A stretch of 61,154 nucleotides of DNA, counting the filler, from Sluysia triapertura (Eukaryota): assembly GCA_046118255.1 (NCBI GenBank). It is 5 parts of 5 records of this genome, joined end to end, with 100 filler letters (N's around TTAATTAATTAA, not from the genome) between each part and the next. Parts side by side here need not be neighbours in the genome. Positions count along the whole stretch, not along the records: positions 34,380 to 46,838 come from JBJNIA010106872.1; 4 more parts are not named here. The stretch is one strand, 5' to 3'. The position numbers and the translations under genes are program-made. Of the stretch, positions 6,350 through 52,900 are shown in pieces. The notes under the pieces were generated by a model. It worked only from the letters and a program-made list of their open reading frames with translations. It did not search any database and was not told the DNA's origin. Each line of letters opens with the position of its first letter. Position 1 is the first letter of the stretch.

Positions 6350-6491
6350 TGTTAGACTTCGTAATATGGACTGACCGGGGATCGAACCCGGGACCTTCGC
6401 TGTGCAGTTCGAATGCTCTACCACTGAGATATCAGCCCCGTCTAATGATTTTATTTTATTATAGTCAATTTTACCAAATGGCACCCCAACA
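6350..6491 (-). mobile_element. tRNA-Ala-like cassette element, copy 1 (TGTT..AACA ends, TSD ATAA)
   Basis: Minus strand reads GGGCTGATATCTCAGTGGTAGAGCATTCGAACTGCACAGCGAAGGTCCCGGGTTCGATCCCCGGTCAGTCCA; flanked by ATAA (6346-49) and ATAA (6492-95). Confidence 0.85.
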
Positions 6492-9500: not shown

Positions 9501-9854
9501 TCTGTGATTAATTCGAGATATAATTTTAAAAATATAAATGTTAAACGCATAGTCATTGAATAATTAGTACACAAACGTTATGTATAAATAAAGAGTTAAA
9601 TAGTGAAAATTTAGAACAAGTGAGAACTACTATTAGTTATAAATTTAGTTAGACAATATTTTATACCAGCTTTCGATACAAGTCTTTTTTGAACATTAAA
9701 TATTGTTGTATTATTATTAAGCTATTTATAGGTCAATATTATAAGTTATGTTGTATGTATAGATTGACATTATGAATTCATTTAATGTGTTTCAATTTAA
9801 TGTGTTAAATTTATAAATTATTGTACAAATCTTTAGGATTAATACTTTAGGTAA

Positions 9855-11206
9855 GACTTTATTTGTTTTAAGAATATTAATGGGCACTGATATTTTTCCA
9901 ATTCATATATTAGTATTGATTCGCCAGTGTCACAACTTGTTTGATCGCTCCTACAAAAAGGTCTAGACATCATAGTGCCATTTTCTAAATTAAAACTTTC
10001 GTTAAAAGATTTTAAACTTACTACACATATTTCCTGAGCTACTACATTGTGGTAAATCTTTCCTTCATATTCTATTGACCCTCTTTCACAAGTACCGTCA
10101 ATTAATACATTACCAGCCGTTCTAATATTATAAATTATTTTCTCGTTATTTTTAATTCTTAGTTTATCTCCTTTATTTAAACTTAAGTATCCAGTTTCAA
10201 ATGCATCACGACAATTGTTCGGGAATATTTTAAAAGGTTTTAATATGTTTGATATATCGATAATTGAAGAATGACTGTGATGTCCACAGTACCAGATTAC
10301 TATAGATCTTTTAATTAAACATTCTCTAACTAATGTTGTAACCAGATTTCCTTCTCGGTACACATTTAATATTTTCATATCTTTTATTTTGACTATATTT
10401 GGTCTTGATTCAGGACAATCTTCTTCCAATTTGAAGTCGACTACAATCAAAAGCTTTTATAGCCTTAGTTTTATGAATTCCAAATAATGTCAACAAAACA
10501 ATTATTTATTGAAGTTCCAAATTGTGGAAATGATCCATTGGTATTTCCTTTATTATTAATTAGTCGGGATATCGTATTAAGTGGTTCATTTAACATATTC
10601 CTTTCTTATTTTTCTTTACCTTTGTCTTTTATAATGTTTTTCCATCCTCCTAATTTTTCAGTCAGAGTACTTAATTTCTTATCAACGAAATTTATAACTT
10701 TATCTATGTTTTCTATCTTTTCTTACATTGAAAAATTATGTAAGCCATTATTATTTTAAGTCTATCTCTGTTAATTCCAGCGTTAATCTGTTTATGTATT
10801 ATGTTCTTGTATTGACCGTTATCTATGAAATCATTTATGTCTGTATTCTTATATCTTCCTTCCATAACTTTAATTATCTTAGTTAATGCAATTTTGTATT
10901 CCTTTAATTCGGGTAAAAGTGTCTTATACTTATCAAAGTTGGAAAATTTATTAGATAGTAAAGCGTAATTATAGTTTTAGTGCTTAAAGTTTCTTCTATA
11001 TTCTTTTAAGTAATTTTAGTTAAATCGATAGGTTTTCTATATATTGGGGTTGATATTATTGTTTCGTCATCATTATTCTTTCTAGGTCTACCTGGCCTTC
11101 TTTTAAAAGTATTTGTTTCTTTATCTTCGGTTTCAATATGTGGATTTTTATTTAAATCTATTATGTAATCAGGTTTATCTTCAGTGTAATCATCATTATC
11201 ATTTGT
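9855..11206 (-). pseudogene. Retroelement envelope glycoprotein (chuvirus-G-like), copy 1, with upstream AT-hook region; frameshifted and truncated
   Basis: ORF 9839-10450: C.IKRS..WYCGHHSHSS..CRDAFETG..GTCERG..C..DQTSCDTG. Upstream IKAFDC; KRRPGRPRK at ~11078-11104. Homologous to 38535-40215. Confidence 0.75.
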
Positions 11207-11306
11207 NNNNNNNNNNNNNNNNNNNNNNNNNNNNNNNNNNNNNNNNNNNNTTAATTAATTAANNNNNNNNNNNNNNNNNNNNNNNNNNNNNNNNNNNNNN
11301 NNNNNN
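11207..11306. other. Artificial contig linker (44N-TTAATTAATTAA-44N)
   Basis: Same 100-nt structure at all four gaps; the palindromic core gives stops in all six frames. Confidence 0.95.
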
Positions 11307-20020: not shown

Positions 20021-20192
20021 TCAATATCATTTTCTTTTTGTGTTTTGATTGGGCAGCCAATCACAATATTGGAAAAAATTTCATAAAGTTTACTTTTTCA
20101 AAAAATATAAAATTTATTTTAATGAGACCTGAGTTAAAAGGAGTACAATGATGGAAATCAATAAAAACTCATACAGAATCAACAAACGCTAA

Positions 20193-23203: not shown

Positions 23204-23303
23204 NNNNNNNNNNNNNNNNNNNNNNNNNNNNNNNNNNNNNNNNNNNNTTAATTAATTAANNNNNNNNNNNNNNNNNNNNNNNNNNNNNNNNNNNNNNNNN
23301 NNN
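23204..23303. other. Artificial contig linker
   Basis: 44N-TTAATTAATTAA-44N. Confidence 0.95.
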
Positions 23304-23427
23304 TTTACAAAGTTAAATTTCTATATTCTAAAAACTTAGTAATACGTCTCCAAGTTTGGTATAAAGCGTATATACTAAGCGAACCGACCTTACAGATAAT
23401 TTGTTAAGTATAAGAAAAATACTAGCA
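23304..23427 (+). mobile_element. 3' end of an LTR (subfamily A)
   Basis: AATACGTCTCCAA..TGGTATAA..CGTATATA..GCGAACCGAC..AGATA..GCA matches 47846-47936 and the reverse complement of 43422-43520. Confidence 0.8.
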
Positions 23428-23439
23428 AAACCGAACAAT

Positions 23440-26000: not shown

Positions 26001-26152
26001 TGTTGGGATATAGGCCTAAAGTGCCATGTTGTATAATTGAATATAATAAAATAAATTTGTTAGGAGCTGATAGCTTAGTGGTAGAGCATTCTAACTGCGC
26101 AGCGAAGGTCCGGGGTTCGATCCTCGGTCAGTCCATTTTATGAAGTCTAACA
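26001..26152 (+). mobile_element. tRNA-Ala-like cassette element, copy 3 (near-TSD ATTA/ATCA)
   Basis: TGTTGGGATATAGGCCTAAAGTGCCAT...TTGTTAG-GAGCTGATAGCTTAGTGGTAGAGC...GGTTCGATCC..CAGTCCA-TTTT-ATGAAGTCTAACA. Confidence 0.85.
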
Positions 26153-27354
26153 ATCACATAATTAAGAATTATTTGACTTTGCTCAATATTAAGGCTTTCC
26201 TTGCATGAACTTGGCCAAACCATACCTTCATTGAAAGATCTTAAAACACGTGCAATAGCATTCCTCATTCAAACATTATTCACAAAAACGTACTTTTCTT
26301 AATTAAGATTTTAATTAATAATCAATTTTATACTTAATCTTATTTTATATTGAAAGATTTAGTATTTGATAAGTTTTTTTATGTATTCAGCAAGTTTTAG
26401 ATGTTTTCATATTTACCACTGTCATTCCTTCATCTACTTCTTTGTGTCAATTACTACCACATCAAATTCATCTTTAGCAATGATTTTATTTCTCAAATAC
26501 TTTAAAGATTTCAATTACTTTACAAAATTGCTCAAAGATTTTAAATACTTATCAAGGTTTCAAGATTACTTAAAGGTCAGTAAGGTCTCAAATGATCTCA
26601 AAGGTTCTTAATGTATTTAAACTCATATCAAACTCCATGGTATTTTTCAGCTGTTGACATGACCATAAGCGTTTTTGTCTTCATCACTCTTAATCCAACA
26701 ATGTTTATAATGTTCTATGCATCGTTTTCTATCAATTCTTATTTTATTTTATAGTTCTGTTTCTTACCTATCTTCTGCTGTACAGCTGAGCAATCCCAAC
26801 AGTATTAGTACAACTATCGATATATTGAATCATGCGGAATGAACATTAAAAGGTTTAGTCTTATTGGAAACAACTTACGAAATGAATTTAAACATTTTCA
26901 AAATTCATAATTCGTATCCAACAATTTTAACACAAATAACTATAATGACCGTTAACAGACAGATTGATTAAAAAGTTTAATAGAGTAGCAATATTGTAGT
27001 CATTAATTTTTTTGACTAGAATAGTATTACTCTTATGAATATTTTTATTTTCATTTTATTCAATTTTTTAAATTATTATCAATTTTTAACAAGTACCTAG
27101 ATATAAATATGTAACACAAAATTAATAAATTAAAATGTAATAATTACGAAAAATAAATAAAAAATTACGTCATTAAATTGGTTTACTGTCAGTGTGTGAT
27201 ATTTTTAGTCAGTCTGGGATATTTTTAGTAGTTTAAGAGTTTCTTACTCTTTTAACTTCTACTTACGGTACAAAAATTTACGCTTCTATTTCGAAAATAG
27301 TGATCTTATGAGTCTAATTAAAATGACTCTTGATGATGATATGGAGAGAGATAT

Positions 27355-27505
27355 TGTTAGACTTCATTAAATGGAGTGACCGGGTATTTCTTGCCACGCA
27401 GTTAGAAATACTCTACCACTGAACTATCAGCTCCGTCTAACAAATTTATTTTATTATATTCAATTATACAACATGGCACTCTAGGCATTTTTTGAGATAA
27501 CAACA
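27355..27505 (-). mobile_element. tRNA-Ala-like cassette element, copy 4 (degenerate; ATAT/TTAT flanks)
   Basis: TGTTAGACTTCAT..GG..TGACCGGG..CTCTACCACTGAACTATCAGCTCCGTCTAACAA..TGGCACT..CAACA. Confidence 0.8.
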
Positions 27506-28760: not shown

Positions 28761-30885
28761 TTATGACTTGCTTTCTAACTTCTTTTTGAGCAATTTCTTG
28801 TGTTTTTCAATTCTTTCTGAAATATCATCTTGTTTTTCAATATTATTTACATACTTATTTTCATCATCTTTATGACTCTCGCCCTCATTTCCATGTCTCT
28901 TCAACTTTTTCTTATCCTTTTCAATTTTTTCTGAATTATCATCTTGTTTTTCAATATTATTTGCATCCTTATTTTCATCATCTTTATTACTCTCGCCCTC
29001 ATTTCCATGTCTCTTCGACTTTTTCTTGTGTTTTTCAATTCTTTCTGAATTATCATCTTGTTTTTCAATATTATTTACATACTTATTTTCATCATCTTTA
29101 TTACTCTTGCCCTCATTTCCATGACTCTTCAATTTCTTTTTTATTACAACTGATTCTGAATTCTTCCTTTCTTCAAATGGCCTCTTTAACTTCTTTTTCT
29201 GTTTCATTTCACTATTGTTGCACTTTGAATCAGTGGAATTGACACTTATTTCAGCATTTTTTATTATTCGCTTCGATTTCTTTTTTTGTCGTCGTCTTTT
29301 CTTTGTTTTTTTAATTACACCGTCGCCTTTTGCCTTCGCAATATGTGTGATCGATGAAATGGATTCTGGAACCACTTTTACATCTGTAGCTCGTTCAAAA
29401 ACTCCCACGAAAAATCCATTACACAAATCGTAGTCAGGATTTGTTCTGAGACAATCTGTCAAGCCCTTGCGACCTCTGGTCATCCAAGAGCGATCCGCAT
29501 GTACTTGTTGATGCACAAGACGGAAATGGGGGGCCCATCTTTCTTGCACCTCGCGAATCACATATTCATTCTCTTCCAGAGTCAATGAACAAGTCGAATA
29601 GACAATCTTCTCCACGGCGGGAAACAAGAACGCATGGTTTAAGAGACATGCTTGGAAGTTGTGAAGACTACTTAAGCGAGCAGGATCGACACGGCAGCCT
29701 TGCGAGCGCTCAATTGCCCTATCTAACTGTCGTAACATGCCCGACCCGCTGCAGCTGGGATCGACAAGTATACAGGTGACTTTAGAGTATTGTGAATCAT
29801 GCGGATCGACTCGTCTAAAGTCCTGATTTTCAACACGTACCTTTACCGTCTTATACAAACCTGTGTCAATCTGCTTTTTCATTCTCTGCTCGAGCTGTAG
29901 ACATCGAATTTTATCTCTATCAAATGCGAATATTTGTCTACCAGTGTCATCCATGGAAGCCAAAATACTCAAAATATGGCAGGTCTTGTTTCCTGGAGCT
30001 GCACATGCATCTATGACATCACCGCGTGAATTTTCTGAGATCAGACAATGTGCAGGAAGACAACTTGCTTTATCTTGCAGATACACATAACCATCACGAA
30101 CAAGCTTTTCACTGTGAAGGGCGGTGCGAGGCGGAAATACAAGCAACTCTGCAGTTAGGTGGTAGTCGGACATAAACTGGTCTTCTTGCAATTGTGAAAC
30201 TGTTTGTAAGTAGCTGAAGCAGAATTATGAAATAAAAAGTATTTAAATTTACTCGGAATATTTCATTTTATCAAAGTCATATTGAAGGAAAACGTATCCT
30301 GAATTCGTAAAATGATCAATAACCTCTTCTAAACTAATCTTAATTAAATCAACTCTAACATAAATTGGTAAACTTATATCTAAATAAAATACACTTTTAT
30401 ATAAAAGCATTTTTACTAATTTCAGTAGGTTCAAATTTCGATTTTAGTTCATCACGACTTGTTACTTCCTTTTCTTTCATTATTTGTTCAGTGATTTCTT
30501 TAAATATTTTAATTTTATTTCCCAATGGTATTCCATTCACATAACACGCTGCCTGTCCAAATAACAAATCATAAATTTGAACTTTGGTCCAACACGCTTC
30601 ACATCCATTGCCAACTTCACATTCTCTTTTCGATTCTGATTTCTTTTTTGACTTGTTTATATAACGGTCATAAATTTCTATTAATAGTGACCTGTTTTTC
30701 AATGCTTCTCCAACAAGAGCTAATAATTTTTTTAGATCCTTTCAAATAATAATTTAAAAATTAAAATAAATTACACATCGGAAATTTGATTGAAAGAGTG
30801 CATTTTTTGAGTTACAAATTCCAGCAGCTACTTTACAATAGAATAAAGCCGCTTCTTTATAAAATAAATCCGAAGACTTCGACAT
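28761..30885 (-). CDS. NSUN5: NSUN5 / Rcm1-like rRNA m5C methyltransferase, 4 exons
   Basis: Exons 30775-30885, 30417-30738, 30253-30379, 28761-30213; GT-AG introns of 36, 37 and 39 bp keep the frame. Motifs LPIYVRV, LQDKASCLPA, DACAAPGNKT, DPSCSGSG, YSTCS, NGFFV. Confidence 0.93.
28790..29131 (-). repeat. 3 x 114-bp coding tandem repeat in the NSUN5 tail
   Basis: GCCCTCATTTCCATG at 28881, 28995, 29109; 38-aa unit KRHGNEGESNKDDENK..NNIEKQDDNSERIEKHKKK. Confidence 0.95.
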
Positions 30886-32638: not shown

Positions 32639-33226
32639 TTAATGTCCTGCTGCTACTGCTTCCTTTCTTCCATTAATTTGACCAGATTTAACAGCAAGAT
32701 TGTGAAATCGAGCAATATTTACTTCCACCGTTGTTATTTGATCTTTCAGAAACTCTAAGTAATTCTCCAAATTTTTCAAGTAATCCGCAGCCGCCTTTTC
32801 ATTTTTTACCAATACTGCTTTAGCTTCATCTAAAGAATATTCCATCATAACATTAGCACCTAGCCATAAATTCACTTTATCTACTTTTTCGATTTCTGCA
32901 AATCCATGTAACTGATTTGTTATCTCATATGTTGTTTCAAATGGCATCGAATCTTCTGATATTGATTCAAAATGATTCACTACGTCAAGAGTTTTACGAA
33001 TATCAGGAATTTGTTGAAGTAATCTTAATTTTTTAGAATAAAAATTACTTTCCCATAATCTGTATTTTTGAAGCAACTCTTCCATAAATTTACGAGCTTC
33101 CAGAAAATTAGCATATCCATGAGTTTTAATATATTCTTCGGGATTTTCTACAAAATCTGCACGTGGAATTCCGTAATCATTATCTTCAGTAATTGTTTTA
33201 GATGCTGACGTTTGAGTTGATGCCAT
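32639..33226 (-). CDS. VBP1: Prefoldin subunit 3 (VHL-binding protein 1), single exon
   Basis: GIP.A.FVE, QIPDI.KTL, KV.LWLGANVMMEY.LDEA, L.FLKDQITT.EVN.AR..N. Confidence 0.96.
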   Translation of the reverse strand: MASTQTSASKTITEDNDYGIPRADFVENPEEYIKTHGYANFLEARKFMEELLQKYRLWESNFYSKKLRLLQQIPDIRKTLDVVNHFESISEDSMPFETTYEITNQLHGFAEIEKVDKVNLWLGANVMMEYSLDEAKAVLVKNEKAAADYLKNLENYLEFLKDQITTVEVNIARFHNLAVKSGQINGRKEAVAAGH

Positions 33227-33849
33227 AATAATTGTAATACAATTAATTTACAAAGTTAAATATTTCTATGAAACAATAATTTTTTTATTTATATAAAGTA
33301 AGTAATTTATTAAAAATTTTAAATAAAAAATGAAATTAGAAATGAATCTTTATATTTTTAAATTAATATTATCGTATCCAGTTCTTTATTTATTAAAACA
33401 AAATAATGAAACATTTTATTATTGATTTTGCTTAAAGTAATTTTATATTAATTACTATTGGAAGACAATTAAAATTGTAACATTATGATTTATGATATTC
33501 TGGAAATCTCTACTGTGCACCGTTTTATTTTTATTTAATAAATAAATGTTATTGCATCTTTGATTTTGCAGAACTTCCGGTAAGGAAATTTATATTATAG
33601 AAAAGTGAAACATGATTGGCATATTTTAGTTAAGAACTTCAATTATTAAAGTTAATGAAATTGATAAGAACGCATTAAAATAATTTAATATACTTAAGTT
33701 ACTTTGAATAAACGTTTTTAACTTTTAGTTTATTTTGATTTTCTTGTTTTGAATTTACATTTATTTAACCTATTGAGAAAAATTTAATTAAGCAAAAATC
33801 AATAAATTTAACATGAAGTTATCAGCAATTTGAGGTACTAGTTGATAAA

Positions 33850-34279: not shown

Positions 34280-34379
34280 NNNNNNNNNNNNNNNNNNNNN
34301 NNNNNNNNNNNNNNNNNNNNNNNTTAATTAATTAANNNNNNNNNNNNNNNNNNNNNNNNNNNNNNNNNNNNNNNNNNNN
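34280..34379. other. Artificial contig linker
   Basis: 44N-TTAATTAATTAA-44N. Confidence 0.95.
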
Positions 34380-34719
34380 TTTGGAGTGAATGTAGTGGTT
34401 TATTGAGTTGTGAATGTTTGAGATATAGATTGTTTCGTTGGTGAATGTGAGTTGGAAAAGTGTTATGATTGTGTATTGTTGTTTTATGAGGTGAATTGTG
34501 TGGTGATTATAGTTACATAGTATGGTTGTGATTAAAATTATTTTAATGAAGTTATTTTCGATCTTAAATTATGGGGTTGGCCACTACAACGTATATATGT
34601 GACGTATAAGTCTACTACTTTCTAATACACTTATGTTAATGACATTTTCAAAATTATTCAAAACACAATTAATATGATTGCTACTTCTGTCATGGACATT
34701 GCTATATAATTGAATCCGA

Positions 34720-35190
34720 ATGCATATGTTCGCACATATATGCTCTTAACATTAATATCGTCATAAGTAGATAGGATATCATCAAATGAGCAATAAATAA
34801 CATTATCAAAAGAATGATATATGACTGACATAATACCAGCTGTCGTTTTTGTTACAAATATTTTAACATTAAGTTGATTATGAAAAATTATAATATTATC
34901 AATTGACTGATATATGATTGATACAGTACTAAGAATCGTTTTTATTAGAAATGTTTTAACATTAAATTCATTATGAACACTTATAGCATTATTAACTGAA
35001 TGATATATGACTAATAGTTTAATATTAATTTCATTATGAAAATTCATTATTAATTGAATGACAAATGACTGACATAGTACTATCAGTCGTGTTATTTACT
35101 GATACTTTAACATTAAGCTTATTATGAAGATTCATATCATTATTAGCTGAATGACATATGACTGACGTAGTACTATAAGTCGTTTTATTT
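34720..35190. repeat. Diverged tandem array, 93-bp period
   Basis: ATGA(C/T)T(G/A)A anchor at 34821, 34914, 35007, then ~35065 (short unit) and 35158. Confidence 0.8.
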
Positions 35191-36054
35191 ACTCTTTCCA
35201 TCGTTGATAATAAGTGATCACATGCTACGACTAGGCAAGTTTCGAATTTTATCTCTAACTGGAACCTTAATAACAGTCTTGTAGTTGGTATCCATCACTG
35301 TATTCAAAAAAACTGGGTTCAGAGATTGTTCACTTTCTTACTTAATACTTGTCATTCCAAATTATTTGAAAAATTATCTTTGTGATTTTAAATTACTGAG
35401 TTTATGTTTTTATAGTGTATAACGATACATATATCTGCGTAAAATTTTATTGGGTTAAACATTATCATCATCATAATCATCATCGTCATCATTATCATTA
35501 TTGCTGTCACTATAATTACCATTATTTCTATTACATTAATCATCATCATTATCACTATAATTATCATCATTTCTACTACTACCGATTTTAATAGTGTTGT
35601 AGTAATTATTGCAATTTAACCTAATTTAAAAACTCTCTTAACTTTAGATGTCTATTTCTTTCTGTTCTAATGTGATCGGTAACTTTGTGAATTGTTGTGG
35701 AGATAAGATTCTCTAATACTGGTAAATAATATTTATCTATTATTTCATTTATTGATAAAGAATTAAAAACATTCATAAACCAATCTCGATTGATATTAGC
35801 ACAAATTCAAATAAACATAATCATGTTCACCAACAACAAACAACCAAAAAAAGGCAAAAACGCAATACAATCGAGACTGCGAACGCATCAATAATAAAAA
35901 TATACATGTTTTTCACTACGCTTTCTTTTGAAACCTCACATGCCTCTTTTCATATACTCTAAATTTTCACATTAATTGAAGCTCTTATAATTTCTTTACA
36001 TATATATTTGAATTCATGTACTACCAGCAAATACGAAAACAGAGAAAGAAAATT

Positions 36055-36296
36055 TATAACCGATGTGGGTTTGACCAGAGACGCCTGCATCAAGTAAAGT
36101 TACTTGAACATACACGTTATCATTTTCCCAACTTTTCATTGTGCAATATCTCAACTAGGACTGATTTGTCCGAATTTAAAGATTCCAACTTAACATCCGC
36201 TGTACAATCCATGCAAAAGTCTCCGAAACAACGTATTGCTCTTTTGCCAAGACTAGTTCTAATTTTCATGAGTGCATCGTAGGCACATGGTTTAGA
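36055..36296 (-). pseudogene. Sec24C/D beta-sandwich fragment abutting Gypsy RNase H
   Basis: AYDALMKIRTSLGKRAIRCFGDFCMDCTADVKLESLNSDKSVLVEILHNEKL/ENDNVYVQVTLL..GVSGQ, cf. Sec24C [52 protein letters not shown]. One frameshift. Confidence 0.8.
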
Positions 36297-36299
36297 TAG

Positions 36300-38400
36300 C
36301 CAAACATAAATGTCAACGGTTTGTGATCGACATATAAATAAACATTCTGTCCTAATAGATAATGTCTAAATAGTTTGCAGGCGTGTACTATGGCTAAACA
36401 TTCTCTTTCAATTGTTGAGTAAATCATCTCAGCTTTATCCAAACGTCGACTAGCATATGCAATTACTGCTTCTAAATTGTTTTTATCTTTTTGTCCTAAA
36501 ATTGCACGAATAGCATAGTTACTAGCATCAGTAGTCTATATATATGGTTTGTTAATATCTGGGAAAATTAGTTTTGGTGCCGTAGTCAGTCGTTCTTACA
36601 ATTCCTTAAATGCTTTAGTTTGTTCATTAGTCCATTTAAATTCAACATTCTTTCGTGTTAACTTCCTAAGTGATTGTGCTATGTTAGCAAAATTTTTAAC
36701 TAATCTTCTGTAGTAATTAGCTAATCCTTGAGAACTTTGAATCTTTTTTACATTATCAGGTTGTGGGAATTTTACCACCTTTTCTGTATTTCTCGGATTT
36801 GGTTTTAATCCATCTTTTGATACTATGTGTCCTAAAAACTCGATTTTCTCTTCAGCCCAAACGTATTTGGTTGGTTTAATTTTGAACCTAGCTATTTTCA
36901 ATCTATTTAGAATATTGTCAATGTCCTTTATGTGTGTATCGAAATATTTAGAAAATATTATTATGTCATCTAAGTATACCATGCCATTTTTACATCATGA
37001 TAATACAAAATTAATGCACCTTTGGAAGGTGCAGGTGCATCATCGCTTTTATGTTTATCTTTTTCAGCAATTTCGATTTGTCAATAACCGCTTTGTAAAT
37101 CAAGAGTTGTAAAATATATAGCGTTTCCTAGTTTGTCCAGCATTTCATCTATTCGTCGTAAAGGAAATACGTCTTTTCTTTTTATCTTATTTAGTTATCT
37201 AAAATCTATGTAAAATCTCACTGTGCCATCTTTTTCTTAACTGGTAAAACTGGAGATGAGAAAGGTGAGAAGCTTGGTCTTATCATTGCGGCTTTTTTCA
37301 TCGTGTCTATTTGTTCTTGTGTCGCCTTTTGATTACTGTATTCTGTATGGCTTTTTTCGGATTACTTTATCTATTATTAGTGGTATTTCTCACTATTGCT
37401 CTTGGATATCGGTAAATGATACTCTATAATTGATCGATCTGTTTCTAGTCAAATTCTTATTAGTGATTTCTATTTCACCGTAATCTTCATCTTTTATTTC
37501 ATGTTGTATTTGTATATTACTCTTTATCTTATTTTCACATTTATTTTATGAAATTAAGTTAATGTGTGCCGGTATCATATATTTAACCATTTTTCTTAGT
37601 TTTGTCCCTGTATAAAGCCATTTATTGTCATTTGTGTAGTTTATAATCTTAAGAGGTATTTTCCCTTCACAATTATTGCACACTGAACTGGCTATTCCTA
37701 AATCTAGCTTTTCTCGATTACTTTTGACGCAATAAACATAATGTTTCCGTTCAATAAACTGTTTGTCTTGGCTGGCATTATGTATTCATTTCTTTTTATT
37801 AACCAAATTAGTTCATCGACGTATATGTCATCATCATCAATAGTTCTTCTTGATCTACTATCCATTAATTAAACTTGGTCGAAATCTTGTGTTACTCCAT
37901 TTAATTGAAACAATATATCCATTCCCATTATCATTTCTTCTGGACATTTTTTCATAACTGTTAATTTGATTTCTAATTTATTTTGTCCTGTCTCGCATAT
38001 AGCTTTCATCACTCCGGTTATATTAATGGCATCGCCTGTAACTCCTGATAAATGAGAGCTATGATCAGCTAATTTTTTTAATTCATCATTATTTAAGAAA
38101 CTTTCGTTGATTAGTACTGTTACTGCTCTACCATTTATTCTAGCGTTTACTATTGGTCTCTTTGATCCATTATAATTATTGTTAGCACATATCATATAGA
38201 TTACATGGGGTGGTGACGTTGGGGTAATAGAATATAATCCTCTTTTCTGATTTTCTTTGGTTGTTTCATGGTTTTCTGAATTTCAATACATTTTTGATTT
38301 TCTATTATTTCTTCATTTTCTCTCTTTTACAATGTTTGTAATTGTTGTTTTTCTTCTTTCTTTTTCGCCTTTCTTTTCTTAATGCATTTATTTGAACATT
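36300..38400 (-). mobile_element. Decayed Ty3/Gypsy pol: protease - RT - RNase H (integrase absent)
   Basis: Protease-like ORF 37869-38195 (active-site DTG lost); RPSFSPFSSPV; DVFPLRRIDE; VYLDDIIIFS; EFLGHIVS; GLANYYRR; APKLIFPD; DASNYAI; AYASRRL; YVDHKPL. Confidence 0.92.
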
Positions 38401-38534
38401 TGCGTGATGGTGAAGGAGGTATTTTGCCAAAAATGGAAAACACCCATTTATTAATTTCCTTGTGAAACCTGAAATTTTATAAATCCCAATTACTGAAAAA
38501 GCTATTACCTTAATAATTATATATATATATATAT

Positions 38535-40215
38535 ATTCCTGTCACTTTTTCACATCAAATTACTGTTCCCTTAGAGATAAAAATTAAGTCATCTTCTCCT
38601 TTACTGGCCATTAGTATTGTCTGTGTTTCGATCTCATGTAGTCTTTTTCTTTGTACATGGCCAGTATTTTGGTCATTTCTCTAATGAGTATTTGTCTTTA
38701 TCTTGATACATAAATTCTGATATTACATTAAACTTTATTTGTTTAAGGAATATTAATGGAGATTGAAATTTGTCCAATTCATAAATTAATAATGATTATT
38801 CAGTATAGCAACTGGTTTGATCGCTTTTGCAATATGGTCTGGACATCATGGTGCCTTTTTCAATGTCAAAACTTTCATTAAATGATTTTAGGCTTACAAC
38901 GCATGTTTCTTTTGCGACAACATTATGGTAAATTTTTCCTTCATATTCAACTGTTTCTCGTTCGCATGTTCCATCTATCAATTTATTTTTTCATTATTTC
39001 CCATTTTTAATTTGTCTCCCTTTGTTAAATAACCGATCTCAAATGCATCTCTACATTGTTTATGTAATATCTTAAATGGTTTAAGTTATTAGATAATTCT
39101 CTTATCGACGAATGACTATGATGACCGCAATATCAGATTGCCACTGATCGTTTTACCATTCATTCATTTATCAGAGTCGTTATTAGATTACCTTCTTGGT
39201 AAACACTCATTACTTTAGTATCTTTTATCTGTATTCTATTTGGCCTTGATTCAGTACAATTTTATGTGTCCAATAATGAAAATTTTCTGCCTATTTGAGG
39301 CTGGATACAGTCAAATGTCTTTATTGCATTAGTTATATTTTTGCCGAACATTGCTAATAGTATTATAATAAATAATGTCCTATTTGTTGAATTACCTATC
39401 CTCGGTATCGCATTATTTAATATATTACCGTTATTGCCGAATAATTGTGTCATTATATTTGTCGGCTCTTCCGTTTTTTGATTCGTTTTCTCTTTTATTA
39501 TGTTCCGCCAACCTTCTTGATTTTCAATCCATAATTTAATTTTCTTAATTACAAAATCTATAACCTTATCTATTTTATTTTTGGGAACCATTTTTCATTG
39601 TTGCATTGGTATATAACATATGTTAAGATTATTTTCAACTTTTTCTCATCAAATCATTTATTAATTAACTTATTTATTACCAATTTATATTGTTCGTTTT
39701 CTATGAAATCACTAATATCTTTATTCTTACATCTTTCTTCAAACTTATTAATTTATTTATAGAAACTTTAGTCTTTATTGATTTTCGTTAATAACTTCTT
39801 ATATTTAGTAAAATTAGTAAATTTTTCGGATAAAAAGGCATAAATTATTCGATTTCATCATAATTTTCACAATTTATTTTTGATAAATCAAAAGTTTTCT
39901 TATTATATCAGTCTTGTCTCTTCGTGGACGTCAAAGTCTTCTTTTTATTGTGCTTGTTTCCTTGTCGAGAGTTTCTATATGTGGGTTTTTATTAAGGTTC
40001 ACTATATAATAAGGTGGCTCATCTTTTTCTACTTCAGCATCAATTTCAATTAGCTCATTATTTTCTGCTTCGGCATCAATGTCAACTATATGGTATCATC
40101 ATCTTCCATTAATTGTCTTAGTATTGTACGTGAGGATTCATTATCTTTTTTATTTGTTTCACTTTCAACATTTTTTGAATTTTTATTTACTATTTCTGCC
40201 TTTATCATTTCGTCA
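38535..40215 (-). pseudogene. Retroelement envelope glycoprotein (chuvirus-G-like), copy 2, with upstream acidic/AT-hook-like region
   Basis: Hydrophobic signal-like TLFIIILLAMFG..NA then IKTFDC..FSLLDT.NC; YCGHHSHSS; ORF 38796-38981 nearly identical in protein to copy 1. Confidence 0.75.
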
Positions 40216-40262
40216 TGATCACCCGTAATCTATTAAATATTCTCTGGGTTCTCACATCCTTT

Positions 40263-41110
40263 TGTGAGAAAGTTAAAGTGAAACAGATAGAATAAAAGCC
40301 TAGCTTAAAGTGAGTTCACCAACGAACTAGACTTACCTGTTAGGGCCAGCCGTTGGATTTTCTATCAAATTTTGTAAAATGGAGGTTCTAATAACTGTTT
40401 ATGCTGTGATTCCTTAGAAAAACTCTTAATGCTAAATTTCTTATTTATACAGAAGGTTTACTTCAATAGATTTTAATGAGGTTCTTAAATCGAACCTGGA
40501 ACACTAATATTTTAATGAAGTTCTTAAATTGAGCCTTTACTAATTACTAAATGATTTTAAGCAAATTCTAAATAGAATCTTTAAAAACTTTTAGAATTTT
40601 AATAAGTGATTTTAATAAGGTTCGTAATAAAACCTATAAAGCTAATAATAAAAATTCAGATTAAAATAAATTTATTACAAAAAAATTTTTATACAAATCG
40701 ATATACAAAAGATAATAATATAGTTTAAATACGATTATACAAAAATAATCTTCGATTAGAGTTTTTTAAATAATAAAATTTAATGTGCTACCTTGAAATG
40801 GTAGCGAAATTGGAATTAAATATTTAGTAGATATTAAATAAGACATTTTAAAAATTGCGGAAAACCTATCAATAAGAAACTAACGACAATCTTACTGCGA
40901 TTATAATTGAATCCTAGTTCTTCGAAAAGGAACTGATAGATATCTCGAAGCAGATGTAAAGTTTTACAAAAATTGTCTGAAAAATTTGTGCGTTTTAGTG
41001 TTCATTTTAGAGGTTTATATACTTCTCAAAAGAATGACCTCGAGGTAAAAAAATTGTTATTAAAACAAATTAGAAAATAAATTAAAGATTAAAAAATAAT
41101 AAATACTTTC
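40263..41110 (-). mobile_element. LTR-like segment (subfamily C)
   Basis: Ends in CA on the minus strand; AATAAA 40671-76; TATAAA 41014-19; same spacing and hairpin layout as LTRs A and B; short purine run AAGGGAAAG at ~41106-14 as a possible PPT. Confidence 0.55.
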
Positions 41111-41319
41111 CCTTACAAAAAGGAAAATAAAAATTAGTGTTGCGACAATATTAAATGACAATTAATAAAAGATTTTAAAAATTAAAGATTTAATATTACA
41201 TATAAAAATCTTACTTTTAGAAAAATTATAAATTAATCCAATTAAATTTTTCGAAATAAGTAAAGTTTATATTTATATTTACATATATATGAATAATTGA
41301 TTCTGCATTATTTATACCT

Positions 41320-43190
41320 TTATACATTTAGTTTAAGCATATCTATTACATCTTCTACTACTATAGTAATGGATAATTCCATAAATACATTTACCAATTC
41401 CGCCAGTAATACGTTAATTTTCATTAATATTTCAGGTTGTTCTATTCTGTCGGCTAAATCTATTTTTCTTAATAATTTTCTTGCTTTAAAGCTATGTGGG
41501 CTACCTTCCTGACTTAAATAAAGTAAACATGACTTGATACTTTGTCTGTTAAACATGTATAGATTCATCTTTAAAAATATATTTAAATTTTTATCCGTAT
41601 TTTTACCGTCTGCTAAATCTTCTTCTATGTTGATTACACAATCGATATCACTCAATGTTGATTTACTATCCTCATCCTCATCCGTTATACCGCTATGTCT
41701 CATCCATCTACTTACAATTGCTTCGGCATGCTTTCTTTCTTCTTCAATTTGTTGAGCACTTTTAATTATTTTTGATTTTTGTTCCCATCCTCACTTTCCT
41801 TTTCCATTACTAATTGCATAAAGTAATTATGTAAATAATTAATAAAAATATCCTCATCATCCTCATGCTTACTCCTTAATTTCATTATTGTCCATTTTTG
41901 CCATATGAAATTCGCTTAACATCTCTGCCTCTTCATCTGTCAGTGTTCTTAAATGTCTTTCGTATTCGTAATCTTCATGCTCCTCGTCATAATTACATTT
42001 TATTTGCCCTTCATTTCTACTCTTATCGAATCTTGCTCTTCTCGGTGAGGCCTGTCTAGAGTTCGACATTTTATTTAAATCCAGTTTAAAAGTATTTGAC
42101 TTTAATTTATTACAGTTTCGAGCATATTACAGTTTCTACCACAATTGTGACATACTATATCTCGTTTCATAATTGTTATTATAGTTTGATCGTGCGGGAC
42201 TTTTCTCTTTTTCGGAAAAATTGTTATTATTCGATTGTTTGCTAGGCCATCTTGACAGTGGACGTTGTTCATACTCTCTTGAGCCCATATTATTTATTTG
42301 TCTTCTCTCAAATCCTCTATTACTCCTACCAACATTAATGTAATTTCTTCCTGTATTATTATTTCTAAAATTATTCGAATTTCTTCTATTATCACCTCGA
42401 AAATTATTGCTACTATTGCTATTAAAACCACTGTTATTAAAATTATTTTCTTCAAAAGATTATTAAAATTGTTGTCTTCAAAAGAATTCTTATACTTATT
42501 TCTTATATTATCCTTAAGAGAATTATCATACTCTTCTTATAATTATTTCTCATATTTTGTTATCATCTATATAACTTATATTTTTTCTAGTTTCTTTTTT
42601 AGTACGCTCAATACTTTTCAATTTCTTAATTGTCTTTGAATGGCATTTCTTCAATTAAATCTACATAAATTCGTAATTCGGGACATAGTCCATTTTTAAA
42701 CTTAATATTATTTCTTTTCGGTTATCTCCAATCCTGGCTCTGGACGCCAAACTTCTAAGCGCACAGGCAAATTCATAAACTATTTTGTTCGGTTTCTGCA
42801 CCCTTATATTAAGCATTCTCGCATAGTATTTTCTAATGCTATTTCTTCGGTAAAAACATCAACAAATGTATTCCAATCTTCCTTATGTTCATCTTTTATT
42901 TCCTTATATGTTTGTATTGCAACACCAATTAAATAATATTGTATTCTCTTAAACTTATCTATTTGTTACCACTCATTAGCTTTACTAGGCTATCAAATTC
43001 AAATAAAAAGTCACAAAATTCTTCCTCGGCGCCACTAAACTTGAGCATTTCTGGGGGTATTACCATTGGCTTAATATTCTGAGTTAGTTGACTCATACAA
43101 TCTTTAAATTCTTCATATGGTAAATCTTTCAAGTGAGTTTCTTAAAGTTATTTTATATTTCTTCTTAGGGTTATCAATTTTATCTATGCT
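41320..43190 (-). pseudogene. Decayed gag (capsid-like region, degenerate zinc knuckle) with a long C-terminal extension
   Basis: KFSGAEE..KANEW..YYLIGVA..Y; FKNGLCPELR; CHNCGR...RNC at ~42110-42152; continues through ORFs 41869-42069 and 41320-41703. Directly downstream of the PBS. Confidence 0.7.
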
Positions 43191-43397
43191 TAACCTAGTT
43201 AACAATAAGATTCAAAAATCAAAATCAAACAATTAACAATAAACTTAACTTCAAAAATCAAAAATCGTAACTTAAATGATAAACTTAAAACAAAATCAAT
43301 ATTAACTTAAACTTATCAAATAAAATTAATTAACAAAATCAATATCACCAAATAAACTTATCAGAAACTTAATGCTTAACTTAATATGCTTCGAGTA

Positions 43398-43415
43398 GTC
43401 CCAATTCGGGCGCCA
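43398..43415 (-). promoter_or_regulatory. Primer-binding site, tRNA-Lys-like
   Basis: TGGCGCCCGAATTGGGAC, 16/18 identical to the canonical tRNA-Lys(UUU) PBS TGGCGCCCGAACAGGGAC; 6 nt from the LTR terminal CA. Confidence 0.85.
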
Positions 43416-43421
43416 AATTTT

Positions 43422-44300
43422 TGCAAGTGTTGCTCTTAAAAACTTAACTTACAAAATATCTAAGGAGTCGGTTCGCCTAATACATACGATTTATACCACT
43501 GTTGGAGACGTATTATTAGGATTTAATATTTATACTTAATATTAATAATATACTTAATATTATTAAGTATATTAATAATATTAATATACTTAATAATATA
43601 CTTATAGATTTTAAAACCTATACTTAGTTTAAAACTTTCGTATATTTGCTGTTAGTCAACTTCTTAATTATTTATATTTTATAATTAAGATTTGATAATA
43701 TTTTAGTAGATTATGCAACCATTTTTGTGGTGTTGCTTTAAAATAATTTAATGAATTTAGAAATTGCGCAAAACTTTTTATGGTGTTTCTTTGAGAAATT
43801 TGAGGTTAAAAGGAAATTACTCAAACAAAAACCTAATTCACTAAGGTTTATTATACAAATACTTAAGTTAATAGATTACAATTGATGGCTATAATAGTGA
43901 TAGTGATTTTAAATATGCGATTCAACCTCGGTTTAATGTAAACTGCGCAACTCTTATTAAGATGTTGCATAAAAATGAAAAAATATTTTTAGTATATTTT
44001 AAGATTCCCTGCGAAGGTGAATCTAAAACTTATAAAAAACTAAATTACTTGTGCATGGACAAAAATGGTAAAGGTAATGCTTCTGAAAATTTTCCAAATT
44101 GTTCTTCTTTATTGTCAAAAAAATTGTTATCGAAAACTTATCTAAAAATGTGTCTTTTTTCTAACCTATAGAAATCTTAAGCATCCATCTTGAAAAATTA
44201 ATTAATTAAAACAAATCTTTTATTTCAAAAATTTTATTTTCTTCCTTTAATTTTTAAATTTAGCTTTATAAAAATTTATAAAAATTTAATTTTCTAAATT
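43422..44300 (-). mobile_element. 5' LTR (subfamily A); U3 start uncertain
   Basis: Abuts the PBS; AATAAA 43847-52; extensive similarity to the reverse complement of 47250-47936. Confidence 0.8.
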
Positions 44301-45880
44301 TATTTTATTTAATGTTTTGAATTTAATTTATTTTTCCTTTGAAATTAATAATTCTATAAATCTGATTAATGATTTATTTAATTATAATAAAAATAATATT
44401 TACAAAATACTAAAATAATAATAAAATGATAACACAATAAAAAATATAACACTTTATGAAATAAAAATATAGCTTTGACATTGTGAATGGACGAAGTCGA
44501 GCAATATTCAAATAATGCTATTAAATACACCTATTTAATTTTTAAAAATATTTTGATATAAAATTTTAATACTTTCTAAAATAATTTTATTTCTTTATTT
44601 ATGTTGTATTATTAAAATTATCATTTAATTTATTAATGAATTACCATATTTAATTTGATGTAAAATTCAAATTTAATTGTATTTCCACATTCATCATAAT
44701 CAGTATCATCAATATCATCAATATTGCTCGATTTTAAATATTAACATTAATTTGTCAATAATTTATTATAATTATTACTTTCTTATAATATTCATTCAGA
44801 TAAACACTTCAAAATTAAAGGTTAGTTGAAATGTTTTGTAAATATTTTAATTTTATTAATGTCTCTTGTGTGAAAAATAGTCCAATTCCAACCTTATAAC
44901 ATGGAGATAATGTGGAATGACTATAAGTAATACTCGGAGTCTGAATTAACACAAATAGCGCTGTCATTGGTTGTAACGAGTACTTTGAGTGATGTGATTT
45001 GTTAGAAGAAGTTGTTTAGGGAGGATCTCATTGGTAATTTTACTTGGTGTATAGAGCTATGGATTCATTTGTTGACAAAAAAGATTATTTTATAAGTGTG
45101 ACGTATCATTGTGCATTCTATCAAAAGTTGTTATTGGAAATAAGTTTTATATTTGATCAAATTTGTATTCAATATAAATTGATGCAGTATCGTCAATAAA
45201 TATTGTTATGTAAGATTTTTCATAGTACTTTTATAAATACATTTAGCTCTCTATGAGTCCCTTACTTTAGCTGGTTTATGTTATGTGATATTAATTATAA
45301 TTGGAAACGATTTAGTTGAGTATCGAACTCTTTAAATTTGAAATTAAAATTGATTTAAACTTTATTTGTATCGTTAAATCGGAATTTGTTACGAATATGA
45401 TGTTCCATAATTTTATTTAAATTCAACGATTTAATAAAATGAATAAGAGAATTACTAACAACGATAATAATTTCTTTATTTTTAATTATAACAAAAAGTT
45501 TTTATGTTGGTGAGGTTTGACTTTAAGATGTTAGTGTTAGGTTTTAAACTTTTGGTTATAATTTCATTTAAGTTTAACAAAACTATTTCTTTATAAATTA
45601 TTAATTCATTTAAATTTAATAAAACTATTCATTTTATTAGGTTAAAGAAACTTGTTATTAACTGACTGTTTAGAAATTAATAATTTATTATCATGAGATT
45701 CGTGCTTAAGGCACTTCAAATCATTTATACTAAATGGTTGAGGGCGGAACAAATAATAAAAAGCTGGTGCAATTTTATTATCATGAAATTTGAATATATC
45801 TACAAATGTTATTATGTAAAATAACATTTCGCTGACAATAAGAATCTTACAATGGAAAGGTTTTTTACGTACCACTTGAC

Positions 45881-46420
45881 TCAACAGAAATCTCCTTCGC
45901 ACCAGCAGACTTCGTGAAACCATTCACGATACGCGCCACAACAATTCAACCTCGATGCCACACGGTAGACTAGCGCTGCTGCGTACTTCTCTACATCATG
46001 CAAACCTTTACCATCATTCATTAATAAAAAGGCAAACAAATAATGAGTAAACTGTTTAAAAAAATGGAGTAAACAATAATCGTGGTGTTCTGACATTCTA
46101 CGGGTTAGATCGATCACTTGGTCACACGAGGAATTACAATCTTTAGTCAGAACTTCAGCTGGTACTGGATACACACGTACTAACCTAAAATCGCTTAATT
46201 TTAAAACTTCAACTTCTTTATCCACCGAGGTGTTTCGTGACTTCAATTCACAATAAACCGCTTTACGATAATCATAAAAATATAAAACAGATAAAATTTG
46301 ATTCATAAAAGACTTAATTATATGTAATGTAGTTTCAAGATTCATTTCGAACGTGTGATCTACTAAATCACAATGCATAAATTCGAACACTATGTATGAT
46401 CATTGATCATGCTTTATAAC
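45881..46420 (-). pseudogene. Degenerate CDK1/2-like kinase fragment fused to unrelated sequence
   Basis: IVFEFMHCDL..IIKSFMNQIL..AVYCELKSRN..LKLSDFRLVRVYPVP.EVLT (HRD to YCE, DFG to DFR). Kinase similarity stops at ~46140. Confidence 0.75.
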
Positions 46421-46838
46421 TGTAAAGTTTAGTTTAAAGTCTATTTATTAGCTTAAAGTTTAAAGTCTATTTAATAGCTCCATTAAAGTCATATAATAAA
46501 CATTTTAAAATTCTTAGTTTATTATTTTCAAGTAATTAGCATTTTCAATCATTTTCAAGGATTAAAATTCTTAATTTATTATTTTCAATTAATTATCATT
46601 TCCAAGAAATCAATTTATTATTATTTTCAAAAAAGGATTAGAATCTTCCAAGTTGGTATATGTTTGATTTTATTATTTTTATTATTATTATAAAAATCAT
46701 TATTTATAAAATTAAATCATTATTTATAAAATTATTTATAAAAATGTAAAAAGTGTAAAATAAAGTTATTTCTAAAATTATTAATATTTGTAAAAAATTG
46801 TTAATAAAAAATTATTTCATTTAAATTAGTTGTTTAAA

Positions 46839-46938
46839 NNNNNNNNNNNNNNNNNNNNNNNNNNNNNNNNNNNNNNNNNNNNTTAATTAATTAANNNNNN
46901 NNNNNNNNNNNNNNNNNNNNNNNNNNNNNNNNNNNNNN
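46839..46938. other. Artificial contig linker
   Basis: 44N-TTAATTAATTAA-44N. Confidence 0.95.
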
Positions 46939-47051
46939 TATAAAAATTATAGTAAATCCTAATAATACGTCTCCAATTTTGGTGTAAAGCATATATATTA
47001 GGCGAACCGACTCTTTAGATAATTTGCTTAAGTGTAAGAAGAACACCAGCA
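46939..47051 (+). mobile_element. 3' end of an LTR (subfamily A), directly followed by another LTR
   Basis: AATCCTAATAATACGTCTCCAA..TATATTAGGCGAACCGAC..AACACCAGCA. Confidence 0.8.
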
Positions 47052-47936
47052 CTATTATAATTAAATAAATCATAAAATTATTTATTAAATTCAAAATAAA
47101 GAAAATCTAAAAATAAAATAAAAAATTTATAAAATTAAAATATCATAAAATTATTTATTAAATTTAGAAAATTAAATATATTTTCATAAAATTATTAATT
47201 TCATAAAATTATTAAATTTAAATTAAATTTTCATAAAATAAAAAATTTTGTTTTAAGAAATTAATTCTTTAAAATGGATATCTAAGAAAAACTTGGATAT
47301 AAATATGTTAGGAAAAATTTGAAGACACAATTTTTTAGATAATTTTTCGAGAACTTTTTTTGACAATAAAGAAGAATAACTTGGAATTTTTTCAGAATAA
47401 TCATTTTTACCATTCTTTTCCATGCACAAGTAATTTAGTTTTCCGATAAGTTTTAGATTCACCTTCGTAGGGAATCTTAAAATATACTAAAAATGTGAGT
47501 TGCGTAACGTTACAATAAATTTATACTACGATCAACCGAGGTTGAATCATATATTTAAAATCATTATCACTATTATAATCATCAATTGTAATCTATCAAT
47601 TGTAATCTATTTGTATAATAAACCTTAGTGGATTGAGTTCTTTTGGTTGAGTAATTTTCTTTTAACCTCAAATTTTAAGAGCAACAGCATAAAATGGTTG
47701 CGTAATCTACTTAATTATTATCAAATTTTAAAGCAACGCCTTAATGCGTGTTGCGTAATTAAATTGACTAACAGTCTGTAAACGAAAGTTTTCAACTAAG
47801 TGTAAGTTTTAGAATCTCTATTAAGTATAAATATTAAATCCTAATAATACGTCTCCAATAGTGGTATAAGTCGTATATATTAGGCGAACTGACACCTTAG
47901 ATATTTTGCATAATTTTCTAAGAAACTCCCTACGCA
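47052..47936 (+). mobile_element. LTR (subfamily A), no PBS after it (solo or 3' LTR)
   Basis: TATAAA 47298-303, AATAAA 47617-22, terminal GCA 47934-36; reverse-complement match to 43422-44200. Confidence 0.8.
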
Positions 47937-49961: not shown

Positions 49962-52900
49962 CTAAATTCGTACAAAATTATTTTCCAACAAATCTGTAGT
50001 ATTCGGACGTTTATCTGGATCCACTATTAAACAACTTTCCATAAAATGTTGTGCTTCTCTAGTCACCGGTGTCTTTTCTGCACTACCATCGCATAATTCG
50101 GGAATTTTCGGCTTTTGCTTTCTACCAAGCTAAAATAAAATTTTGATATTTACTTTTGCAAATATCACAACCCTACAAAATAATTTTAAGATGTCAAATG
50201 ACACGTTAAAATTATTTAAAACTATTTAAAATTATCAAAAAATTATTTAAAATTCTAAAAAGAAATTTTATTTTAGCTTCTAAAAATAGCATAGAATATT
50301 TTAGAACATTCCATCGACTTTCATTGGATGATAACTAGTATATAAACTAGCATCAATACAATGAAAATCGCCATTTGTAATAACACTAATTTTCAAACAA
50401 TATCAAATTGAAGCAGCCATTTGTAAAACTACGTTTCAAATTAACTATTTGGACTTCGCTATCTTTAACAACGTCGTTTGGAGCAACGATCTTTATATCG
50501 CAGTCAGATTTGGATTCAAATCTATCAGTTCCATGTTCAAAGTAATTTGTTTATTTTAAGATCGGTATTAGCTTTATTTAAAGAAGTTAATATCATCAAA
50601 TACACGCAAAATAAATAATATTCTATTTTGTAAAGTTTAAGGTTGCCCGATATATTGAAGGGTTAAATACAGTGCAGAATATAATTAAAATAGTTAATAC
50701 CCAAAACAGTTTTAACTATAAAATAACATTCTTAACCTCCATTTCTCTTATTTATATCCTTATTTTATAATTAATCCAAACTGTTTAATTTATTTTCTGT
50801 TTTAGTTAAACGTTTTGAAGTTTAATTTATTGCACAATAATTTGAGTTTTGTACTATAACAATTTTTGACCCTCTCATATTTAAGTTATCAGTTTAGGAT
50901 TATTACGTTTCATATTGCTACAGAAGTGCCCTCTGCTCAATTTTCTATTTTGCCGTAGGTTTAGATTTAAACATAAGTACAGTTACACTTTTATAATTGT
51001 CCCTGATGCATATTAATCGAGAAAAATGAACTCGCACAACTTTTGTTAGATTTCATAAAATGGACTGACCAGGAGAATCGAACCCGGGACCTCTCGATGC
51101 GCAGTTCGATGCTCTACCTGTCTAACAATTTTGTTTTATTATAGTCAATTATACTATCATTATTCTAAATGGCACTTTAGGCCTGTATCCCAATATATTC
51201 ATAATTCCCTATAGAAATATTGACTATTGGATTATCAAATAATACAAATGTCTTCGACTGGCAGACGAAAAGAAAAAATGATAAAGATAGAAATATCAAA
51301 AGTGAAACAATAAATGTTTCAAAATAACGTAAAGAATGATTTTAATTGTCGAAAGCTTGAATCGAAGAATGAAAGGCCGAAAACTTGTATTGTATTATTG
51401 GATTGTATAATCATTTAATTTATCAAATAGTGGAAGACGATCCAAATTAGATACTCTAGAAATGAGACAAAATTCATGTATTTTATACCTTGACATAACG
51501 AACGCAACATTTTTTGAAAAAATGGAATTCGAGCTTCAAGAATATGTAAAACGGGAACTGTTTTAAAGCATACACATGCACTGACATTGAGTATGGTGAT
51601 TTAATAAAGGATTGTAATCTGGCAAAAATTATCCCCTAAATGTCCCATGCTTGGCATTCGATACGATTAAAAACTGTTTTGAAAAAAATGAGGAATTTCC
51701 AGCGTATGATCAAAATGATTTTGACGAAGAATTTATTGAAATGATTAAAATTACTGATGGAGAGGATGAACTTCCTCAAGTCGAGTTGTCACCCGTCTGG
51801 AAGTTATATAAAAAATGAATATATGCTTAAAACAGTTTTGAAGGCGATATTGCTATCCAAGAATTGAAAAAATGTTTTGGCTTCGACAAAACCAAAAGAT
51901 ATCGACTTTTTGGTTAGGAAAAAGTAAATGCTATTCTTAGACTTCATAAAATGGACTGACCGGGGATCGAACCCGGGACCTCTCGCTGCGCAGTTCGATG
52001 CTCTACCACTAAGCTATCAGCCCCATCTAACAATTTTTAAATTACTATAATCAACCTTAGGCTTATATGCCAACACTATAGCATATTTTTGTTTTATAAG
52101 TAAATGTTTATTAGATTTTCCGTTATTTTTTTAACGAACATGGAATTAGAAAGATTAATAGTTAATAGCATCAAAAGTTAAAAAAGGTCAACATTTTGAA
52201 TTAGCAAAGAAATAATAATGATTTAAACAATGAAGAAAACTGAAAACTGAAAATGTGTCGATGTTTATATTAATTATTAAATCAGACACCATAACTAATA
52301 TATTAGTTTGAGGAAAAAGTTCGGGCGTCATGTTAAAATAATCCTTTTTATATTTCTTAGTGAATTTGTTAATTCAAGTCGTGTGTGCGTGTGTTTGATT
52401 AATATTGAGTTGTTGTTTATAACAATGTTCGATGAAATGGTGCTTTATTTGAATAATACAATGTATAACAAGTCGCATAACCCAGAAAAACCAGCAGCAA
52501 AATTGAAGAATCTGACGAATTTGAAGTTTTGTCGCATCTCTTTTGATATCATTGTACCACTTTACGAAAGTTTTGATGAAGGGCTTTTCGATTCAACGTC
52601 GGAGTAGCACTTTGACCACATCCGAAAGACAATGATGGTCTTTATTTTAAAGAATAAAGCATGAAGGTAGTATAATAGGTTAATCAGCTGTTAACAATGT
52701 AATAGAACTCAAGGTAGGTAGTCATAGTAATGCATTAATCTAAAAGATTATCTGTTTGAAAAACCTTTAGAAATCGTACTTTAAATTTTTGTCGAGTTTT
52801 AATGTTTTAATATTAACTTTTATTATTATGAAAGATAACATTAAAATTCATTTTAAATTTTAAAATTCGCCGTAAATTTTAGTTACAAAAATGCTATTTT

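Follow-up and report, generated by a model that had tools for sequence, protein, structure and literature searches.

The window analysed here is a 61,154-nt stretch of the Sluysia triapertura assembly GCA_046118255.1, composed of five segments separated by identical 100-nt N spacers that share a 12-nt core (11207-11306, 23204-23303, 34280-34379 and 46839-46938); adjacency across these spacers has no meaning. Its minus strand carries two copies of a retroelement env region, copy 1 at 9839-11204 and copy 2 at 38344-40215, and copy 2 lies within a contiguous retroelement remnant. Elsewhere in the window we observed a tRNA-derived SINE-like repeat in six copies (6345-6484, 12660-12836, 26001-26154, 27351-27486, 51043-51197 and 51919-52054). 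Pieces of host genes at 28761-30741 (-), 32639-33247 (-), 20152-20906 (+), 45881-46399 (-), 58706-59119 (-) and 53184-53489 (+) comprise NSUN5 (with a C-terminal 114-nt repeat), prefoldin-3, a polyA-polymerase-family nucleotidyltransferase and two kinases, together with a weak DDE_3 transposase fragment. The prefoldin-3 gene (32639-33247, minus strand) has a best match at 74%, followed by 10 named flatworm proteins at 44-53%. The host is thus likely a flatworm, an assignment drawn from one gene with 162 candidates, located on a different window segment from either env copy.

Two broken env copies

The following parts were assigned to the two copies.

10980..11204, minus strand: acidic stretch of copy 1 with an intact AT-hook (11104-11078), read from the translation
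10609..10976, minus strand: copy 1 likely Bcl-2-like domain, with a frameshift near 10720, a BH1-like motif at 10778-10758 and a BH2-like motif at 10659-10642, located with the profile of relatives
9839..10505, minus strand: signal-like segment of copy 1, followed by its gB-type fusion domain, from PF24664, AlphaFold and gB matches
39860..40215, minus strand: copy 2 leader with acidic stretch and an AT-hook containing a stop (39945-39919), read from the translation
39490..39854, minus strand: copy 2 likely Bcl-2-like domain, with stops, one frameshift near 39595 and a BH2-like motif at 39525-39508, located with the profile of relatives
39325..39378, minus strand: copy 2 internal hydrophobic signal-like segment, from hydropathy
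38543..39324, minus strand: gB-type ectodomain of copy 2, N-terminal part, interrupted by stops and frameshifts, from the env profile (positions 5-271 of 637) and tblastn
38344..38526, minus strand: copy 2 env C-terminal piece, from the env profile (positions 552-606) and tblastn

The original prediction had described two diverged homologous copies, each with an acidic region, an AT-hook that is intact in copy 1, an internal signal-like peptide and the motifs IK.FDC, YCGHHSHSS, C..AFE and G.CE, and all of these features were recovered. The copies show 66% DNA identity over 1164 nt and 64% over 1402 nt (9847-11204 compared to 38723-40045), and the motifs are present in both on the minus strand. 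The signal-like segment starts at 39378 in copy 2 (mean Kyte-Doolittle hydropathy of 1.7 over 19 aa) and at 10505 in copy 1 (1.37). The 270 aligned codons differ 66, 43 and 137 times at positions 1, 2 and 3, respectively, which implies that the two lineages split under protein-level selection and decayed later.

Copy 1 retains an open frame at 10456-9839, is truncated at ≈9847, and is cut at its other end by the N spacer at 11207; it covers positions 6-238 of the 637-position env profile, and its contig segment contains neither gag nor pol. In copy 2, ≈280 env profile positions are absent, the gap falling at a (TA)n run (38520-38537), beyond which the C-terminal piece at 38526-38344 is recognized by the profile (iE of 5e-7) and by tblastn matches of 4 relatives. 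Besides the stop in its AT-hook and the env deletion, copy 2 contains further stops and frameshifts and lacks an integrase. The stops, the frameshifts and the loss of ≈280 env residues imply that neither copy is able to encode an envelope. Thus, both copies are dead, and the potential infectivity that had been proposed for the lineage does not apply to these two copies.

A GAG-ENV-POL element around copy 2

Copy 2 lies on a segment without an N gap (34380-46838), where the order on the minus strand is LTR-PBS-gag-env-PR-RT-RH and the distance from the LTR start to RNase H (44389 to 36296) is 8.1 kb.

43422..44389, minus strand: candidate 5' LTR of ≈970 nt, 69% identical over 1001 columns to 47053-47923 and ending just before the primer-binding site (PBS)
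43398..43415, minus strand: PBS, the sole occurrence of TGGCGCCC in the window
42115..43150, minus strand: decayed gag with approximate ends, consisting of a capsid-like part, an Asn/Arg-rich tail and a broken CCHC-like knuckle near 42150
41320..41790, minus strand: 156-aa open stretch between gag and env, from the ORF list
37878..38156, minus strand: aspartic protease (PR) remnant, from Pfam RVP (E=0.008) and tblastn
36296..37710, minus strand: linker, reverse transcriptase (RT; YLDD at 36976) and RNase H (RH), from RVT_1 (E=6e-9) and RT_RNaseH_2 (E=4e-33)

We take the PBS to be tRNA-Lys-like. The candidate 5' LTR and 47053-47923 align with a score of 537, which is reached by 0 of 100 shuffles. 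Copies of this LTR family occur on the plus strand at 47053-47923, 46949-47051 and 23331-23430, the two at 47 kb being in tandem, and no 3' LTR of the copy 2 element was found within the window, its 3' end having been lost. Copy 1 had also been said to run into an LTR; this LTR was rejected, as the sequence downstream of copy 1 aligns to the LTR with a score of 39, a value reached by 18 of 100 local shuffles, compared to 537 for the true pair.

The gag assignment comes from a weak tblastn match of the N-terminus of the relative P0030 to 42986-42843 (E=2.5e-4) and from the knuckle, which was recognized by eye; the region has no Pfam match. The 156-aa frame, which has no Pfam match and no PDB match under E=0.7, is covered by many contigs of one public sequencing run, like the rest of the family, and is possibly an accessory domain. 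An AT-rich 1.1-kb stretch (40215-41320) separates this frame from the env leader, which suggests that gag and env-pol would have occupied separate frames in this element, unlike in the planarian element Burro considered below. A perfect splice-donor-like nonamer is present just upstream of the env leader (40339-40331, minus strand) and may be there by chance.

The RT/RNase H region shows 45-51% identity to relatives that carry an rve integrase. Three integrase queries gave no match anywhere in the window, and the element ends at 36296. A piece of a Sec23/Sec24 beta-sandwich (≈36284-36117, minus strand, E=2e-4) begins where RNase H stops. The assignment of all pol sequence in the window to Ty3/Gypsy was correct, the sole pol being this PR-RT-RH block. 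A BEL/Pao backbone, against which the gypsy reading had been set, was rejected, because neither Peptidase_A17 nor any other BEL/Pao family was matched in the window pol pieces or in 21 relatives. The original prediction had regarded the link between env and pol as indirect and had expected env after the integrase. Instead, gag upstream of copy 2 and PR-RT-RH downstream of it lie on the same uninterrupted segment, and env precedes pol. This contiguity and the pol families together confirm that env belongs to a Ty3/gypsy element and not to a BEL/Pao element.

One sequencing run in all was found to carry the stretch, with no RNA run listed. Contigs of this public run (8,420) fell in all 30 bins of the stretch, 5,464 of them at 90-95% identity; this pattern suggests that the family has many diverged copies, although the run could itself be the source of the window and depth gives no copy number.

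Envelope fold and leader domain

The chuvirus-like class III glycoprotein that had been predicted was supported by family matches and by models. The copy-1 ORF (9839-10456) matches PF24664 (Monjiviricetes_fusion) with E=2e-19, and its AlphaFold model has a pLDDT of 90. In the Foldseek comparison that had been proposed, this model matched herpes gB in 16 of 16 rows at E<=0.001, and the top 11 VIA rows were gB, rhabdovirus G, thogotovirus GP and GP64. Likewise, the model of the 748-aa relative P0002 (pLDDT of 82) matched gB over its length, with chuvirus G best among viral models. The env profile found gB among PDB sequences only at E=0.13 or weaker. We conclude from the family match and the predicted structures that env is a class III fusogen with a gB-type fold.

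The copy-1 frame finds 89 proteins, among them named chuvirus G proteins. PF24664 is carried by all 21 relatives scanned, 8 of which run in frame into protease and/or RT and 4 through integrase. In intact relatives, env is in frame with PR-RT-RH-IN, a single frame extending from leader to integrase, and in relatives such as P0004 and P0030 env lies in frame between gag and pol, where the frames of copy 2 are broken. Word-indexed protein searches returned nothing for the env ORF or for the leader alignment, and single-protein scans of viral, metagenome and genome contigs found no relative. A 27-nt env pattern found 10 loci, one of which (L004) encodes env and is close to P0002, so that it is partly independent. 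After env, the relatives P0001, P0003, P0006, P0007, P0044, P0090 and L004 have two to several aspartic-protease-like domains; ankyrin was found in P0090 and a weak ubiquitin match in P0010. The C-terminal 350-500 residues that follow the integrase in P0004 and P0006 contain two hydrophobic segments and resemble, by eye, a second membrane protein. The gag-env-pol polyprotein P0004 is deposited under a Flavobacteriaceae MAG and is probably animal DNA in a bacterial bin.

Profile and fold evidence points to a Bcl-2-like domain that, in both copies as well as in 5 relatives, follows the AT-hook and precedes the signal peptide. The original prediction had mentioned neither this domain nor the env C-terminal piece of copy 2. 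Against a profile built from relatives only, the leaders of copies 2 and 1 score 19.4 and 16.0 bits, respectively, values reached by 0 of 1000 shuffles in each case. The leader family profile matches Bcl-2 proteins, and sequence-profile and fold searches point to the same family and to the same part of it, the C-terminal half, with modest scores; the leader segments were chosen by eye, and the modelled helices all belong to the C-terminal half.

It is unlikely that the element is as described and its leader domain is not a Bcl-2 homolog, being instead a helical bundle of other descent whose GGW motif arose by chance, or a degenerate domain with a purely structural role. Such a domain would be consistent with the best match to Pfam PF00452 (20.1 bits), which is below the cut-off of 31.4, with the modelling of helices from the C-terminal half only, and with a middling VIA Z, which falls below the caution threshold that the tool sets for helical bundles. 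It would also be consistent with the negative single-sequence searches, in which neither the L004 leader alone nor the N-terminal piece of the window's own leader found a Bcl-2 chain, and with the detection of the domain in 4 of the 18 relatives with a long leader and its absence from the other 14. P0017 and the L004 leader had no Pfam Bcl-2 match, the window's own BH2 piece matched Bcl-2 chains only at E=0.14-0.97, and the ESM Atlas gave no usable match for two leaders. Against an unrelated bundle stand the agreement of profile and fold on one family and one part of it, and the BCL2-like motif reported at this position in Burro in a review (PMC6431247). These profile and model data indicate that the leader domain is likely Bcl-2-like. 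Our best guess is that the domain is anti-apoptotic; the BH1 motif of the Bcl-2 family, NWGR, is degenerate and not kept here, so BH3 binding may be lost and another role is possible.

Affinities of the element and a proposed mechanism

The closest relatives of env are retroelement env-pol proteins (30-37% identity, E values to 1e-32), compared to E values of 4e-9 or weaker for named chuvirus G proteins. The env phylogeny suggested in the original prediction was run by a quick method on copy 1 only (76 rows, with the misaligned long row P0091 at the root). It grouped env with env-pol retroelements, in a 25-row set (SH-aLRT of 95) within a 38-row set (98), and set it apart from the named chuvirus glycoproteins, the 38-row set containing every env-pol row and no named viral G row; 4 of 10 clusters looked up gave informative row names. 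All seven cysteines in the compared stretch agree, by eye, with 6 of 6 Schmidtea C1a env rows (PMC13524379), and the copy-1 frame does not extend to the domain II cysteine. Moreover, the association of a gB-type env with gypsy is already published (PMC13524379). Thus, the independent, undescribed env capture that had been proposed is not supported. Although PF24664 is the chuvirus-type fusion family, and chuvirus G is named among the 89 matches and stands at the top of the viral fold library, the idea that a Gypsy lineage of this animal recently captured a chuvirus glycoprotein is largely refuted and very improbable.

It is less probable still that env represents independent endogenous viral elements, or a host gene that was domesticated, and came to lie between gag and pol by chance or misassembly; the copy 1 segment without gag or pol, and the lack of a contig of the public run spanning the whole element, would fit this idea, but relatives show this order within single open frames, the distances between the env tail, the protease and RT are those seen in relatives by tblastn, and two broken copies fit domestication poorly. 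We conclude that the window very probably contains two dead env-region copies of a Ty3/gypsy GAG-ENV-POL family, likely of a flatworm, with a gB-type env that follows a likely Bcl-2-like domain, an arrangement described for planarian Burro.

Across animals, gypsy pol has been described next to an env of gB type that resembles those of Chuviridae, an association argued to be ancient, with a GAG-ENV-POL order in Nematoda, Bryozoa and Platyhelminthes, including 9 flatworm elements (PMC13524379). The copy 2 element resembles the gB-type GAG-ENV-POL errantiviruses of that study (Smed_errantivirus_1-6, C1a) in its Ty3/gypsy pol, env before pol, gB-type fold and internal hydrophobic segment before the ectodomain. 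That study covers intact elements only, with intact frames and an integrase, and reports no PBS for six Schmidtea elements; in contrast, the copy 2 element is dead, a relic of such an element, and has a presumed tRNA-Lys-like PBS. Where errantiviruses have paired LTRs and a PBS, it has one LTR candidate and a PBS. It also carries the AT-hook and the likely Bcl-2-like domain, neither of which is mentioned in the main text of PMC13524379.

Burro (GYPSM1) is described in the review as carrying a BCL2-like motif, then an env that matches mononegavirus fusion glycoproteins, then a protease, between gag and pol (PMC6431247). It exceeds 30 kb, with an internal region of up to 25 kb and a single ORF of ≈4,900 aa, contains MATH, BIR, ankyrin and ubiquitin-like domains, and has decaying copies in Dugesia japonica (PMC6431247); its RNA rises on PIWI loss (PMC8532177). 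Judged from this description, the copy 2 element is similar in having a likely Bcl-2-like domain directly before env, env before protease, a likely flatworm host and decaying copies. However, it spans only ≈8 kb from LTR to RNase H, with an LTR of ≈1 kb, and hence we call it Burro-like and not Burro; it has an AT-hook, which the review's account of Burro does not mention, and seemingly a separate gag frame. When 39855-42520 was read in all three minus frames, Pfam returned no match at E<=0.05 to MATH, BIR, ankyrin or ubiquitin-like domains, with a sensitivity lowered by decay. The dUTPase-like domain of Burro between PR and RT likewise had no Pfam match here, and this stretch aligns with the same stretch of relatives. 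Anakin BEL/Pao elements of mosquitoes also carry a chuvirus glycoprotein, of the same family, in an LTR retroelement (PMC7642597), whereas the element described here has a Ty3/gypsy backbone and an env of another clade. The element is therefore a compact, dead, Burro-like GAG-ENV-POL relative whose layout is already published.

Viral Bcl-2 proteins such as ASFV A179L (PDB 5ua5) are encoded by stand-alone genes of DNA viruses. In this family, by contrast, the Bcl-2-like domain would be the N-terminal part of an env precursor, with a putative activity. Intact members would make a single polyprotein. By standard membrane topology, its leader (acidic stretch, AT-hook and Bcl-2-like domain) would stay in the cytosol, and the internal signal would thread the ectodomain into the ER and then be cut. 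Cleavage would leave the Bcl-2-like domain membrane-anchored at its C-terminal end; cellular Bcl-2 proteins have a C-terminal membrane anchor. The env transmembrane helix would bring the polypeptide back into the cytosol, and there RT and integrase would be set free by the protease at the site of budding. Fusion of particles with adjacent cells would be carried out by the env trimer, and the most likely task of the Bcl-2-like domain would be to restrain apoptosis in the cell that produces them.

More tentatively, and with considerable doubt, we propose that the Bcl-2-env cassette extends beyond the giant Burro and marks a wider clade of compact enveloped retrotransposons. The env signal peptide may serve as the tail anchor of a retroelement Bcl-2, so that a single round of translation would supply a fusogen, a regulator of apoptosis bound to the membrane and a polymerase tethered to the envelope. 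We found no description of such a signal acting as an anchor in the open-access literature.

These results place a further element, compact and decayed, in a published group. At the level of the fold they support the BCL2-like motif, for which the review gives no more than the motif (PMC6431247). They also connect two papers that cite different features, one on the flatworm gB-type GAG-ENV-POL elements and one on the BCL2-env layout of Burro. If the anchor idea is correct, a retrotransposon would control host-cell death through a protein released from the precursor of its own envelope, an idea that could be tested in planarians.
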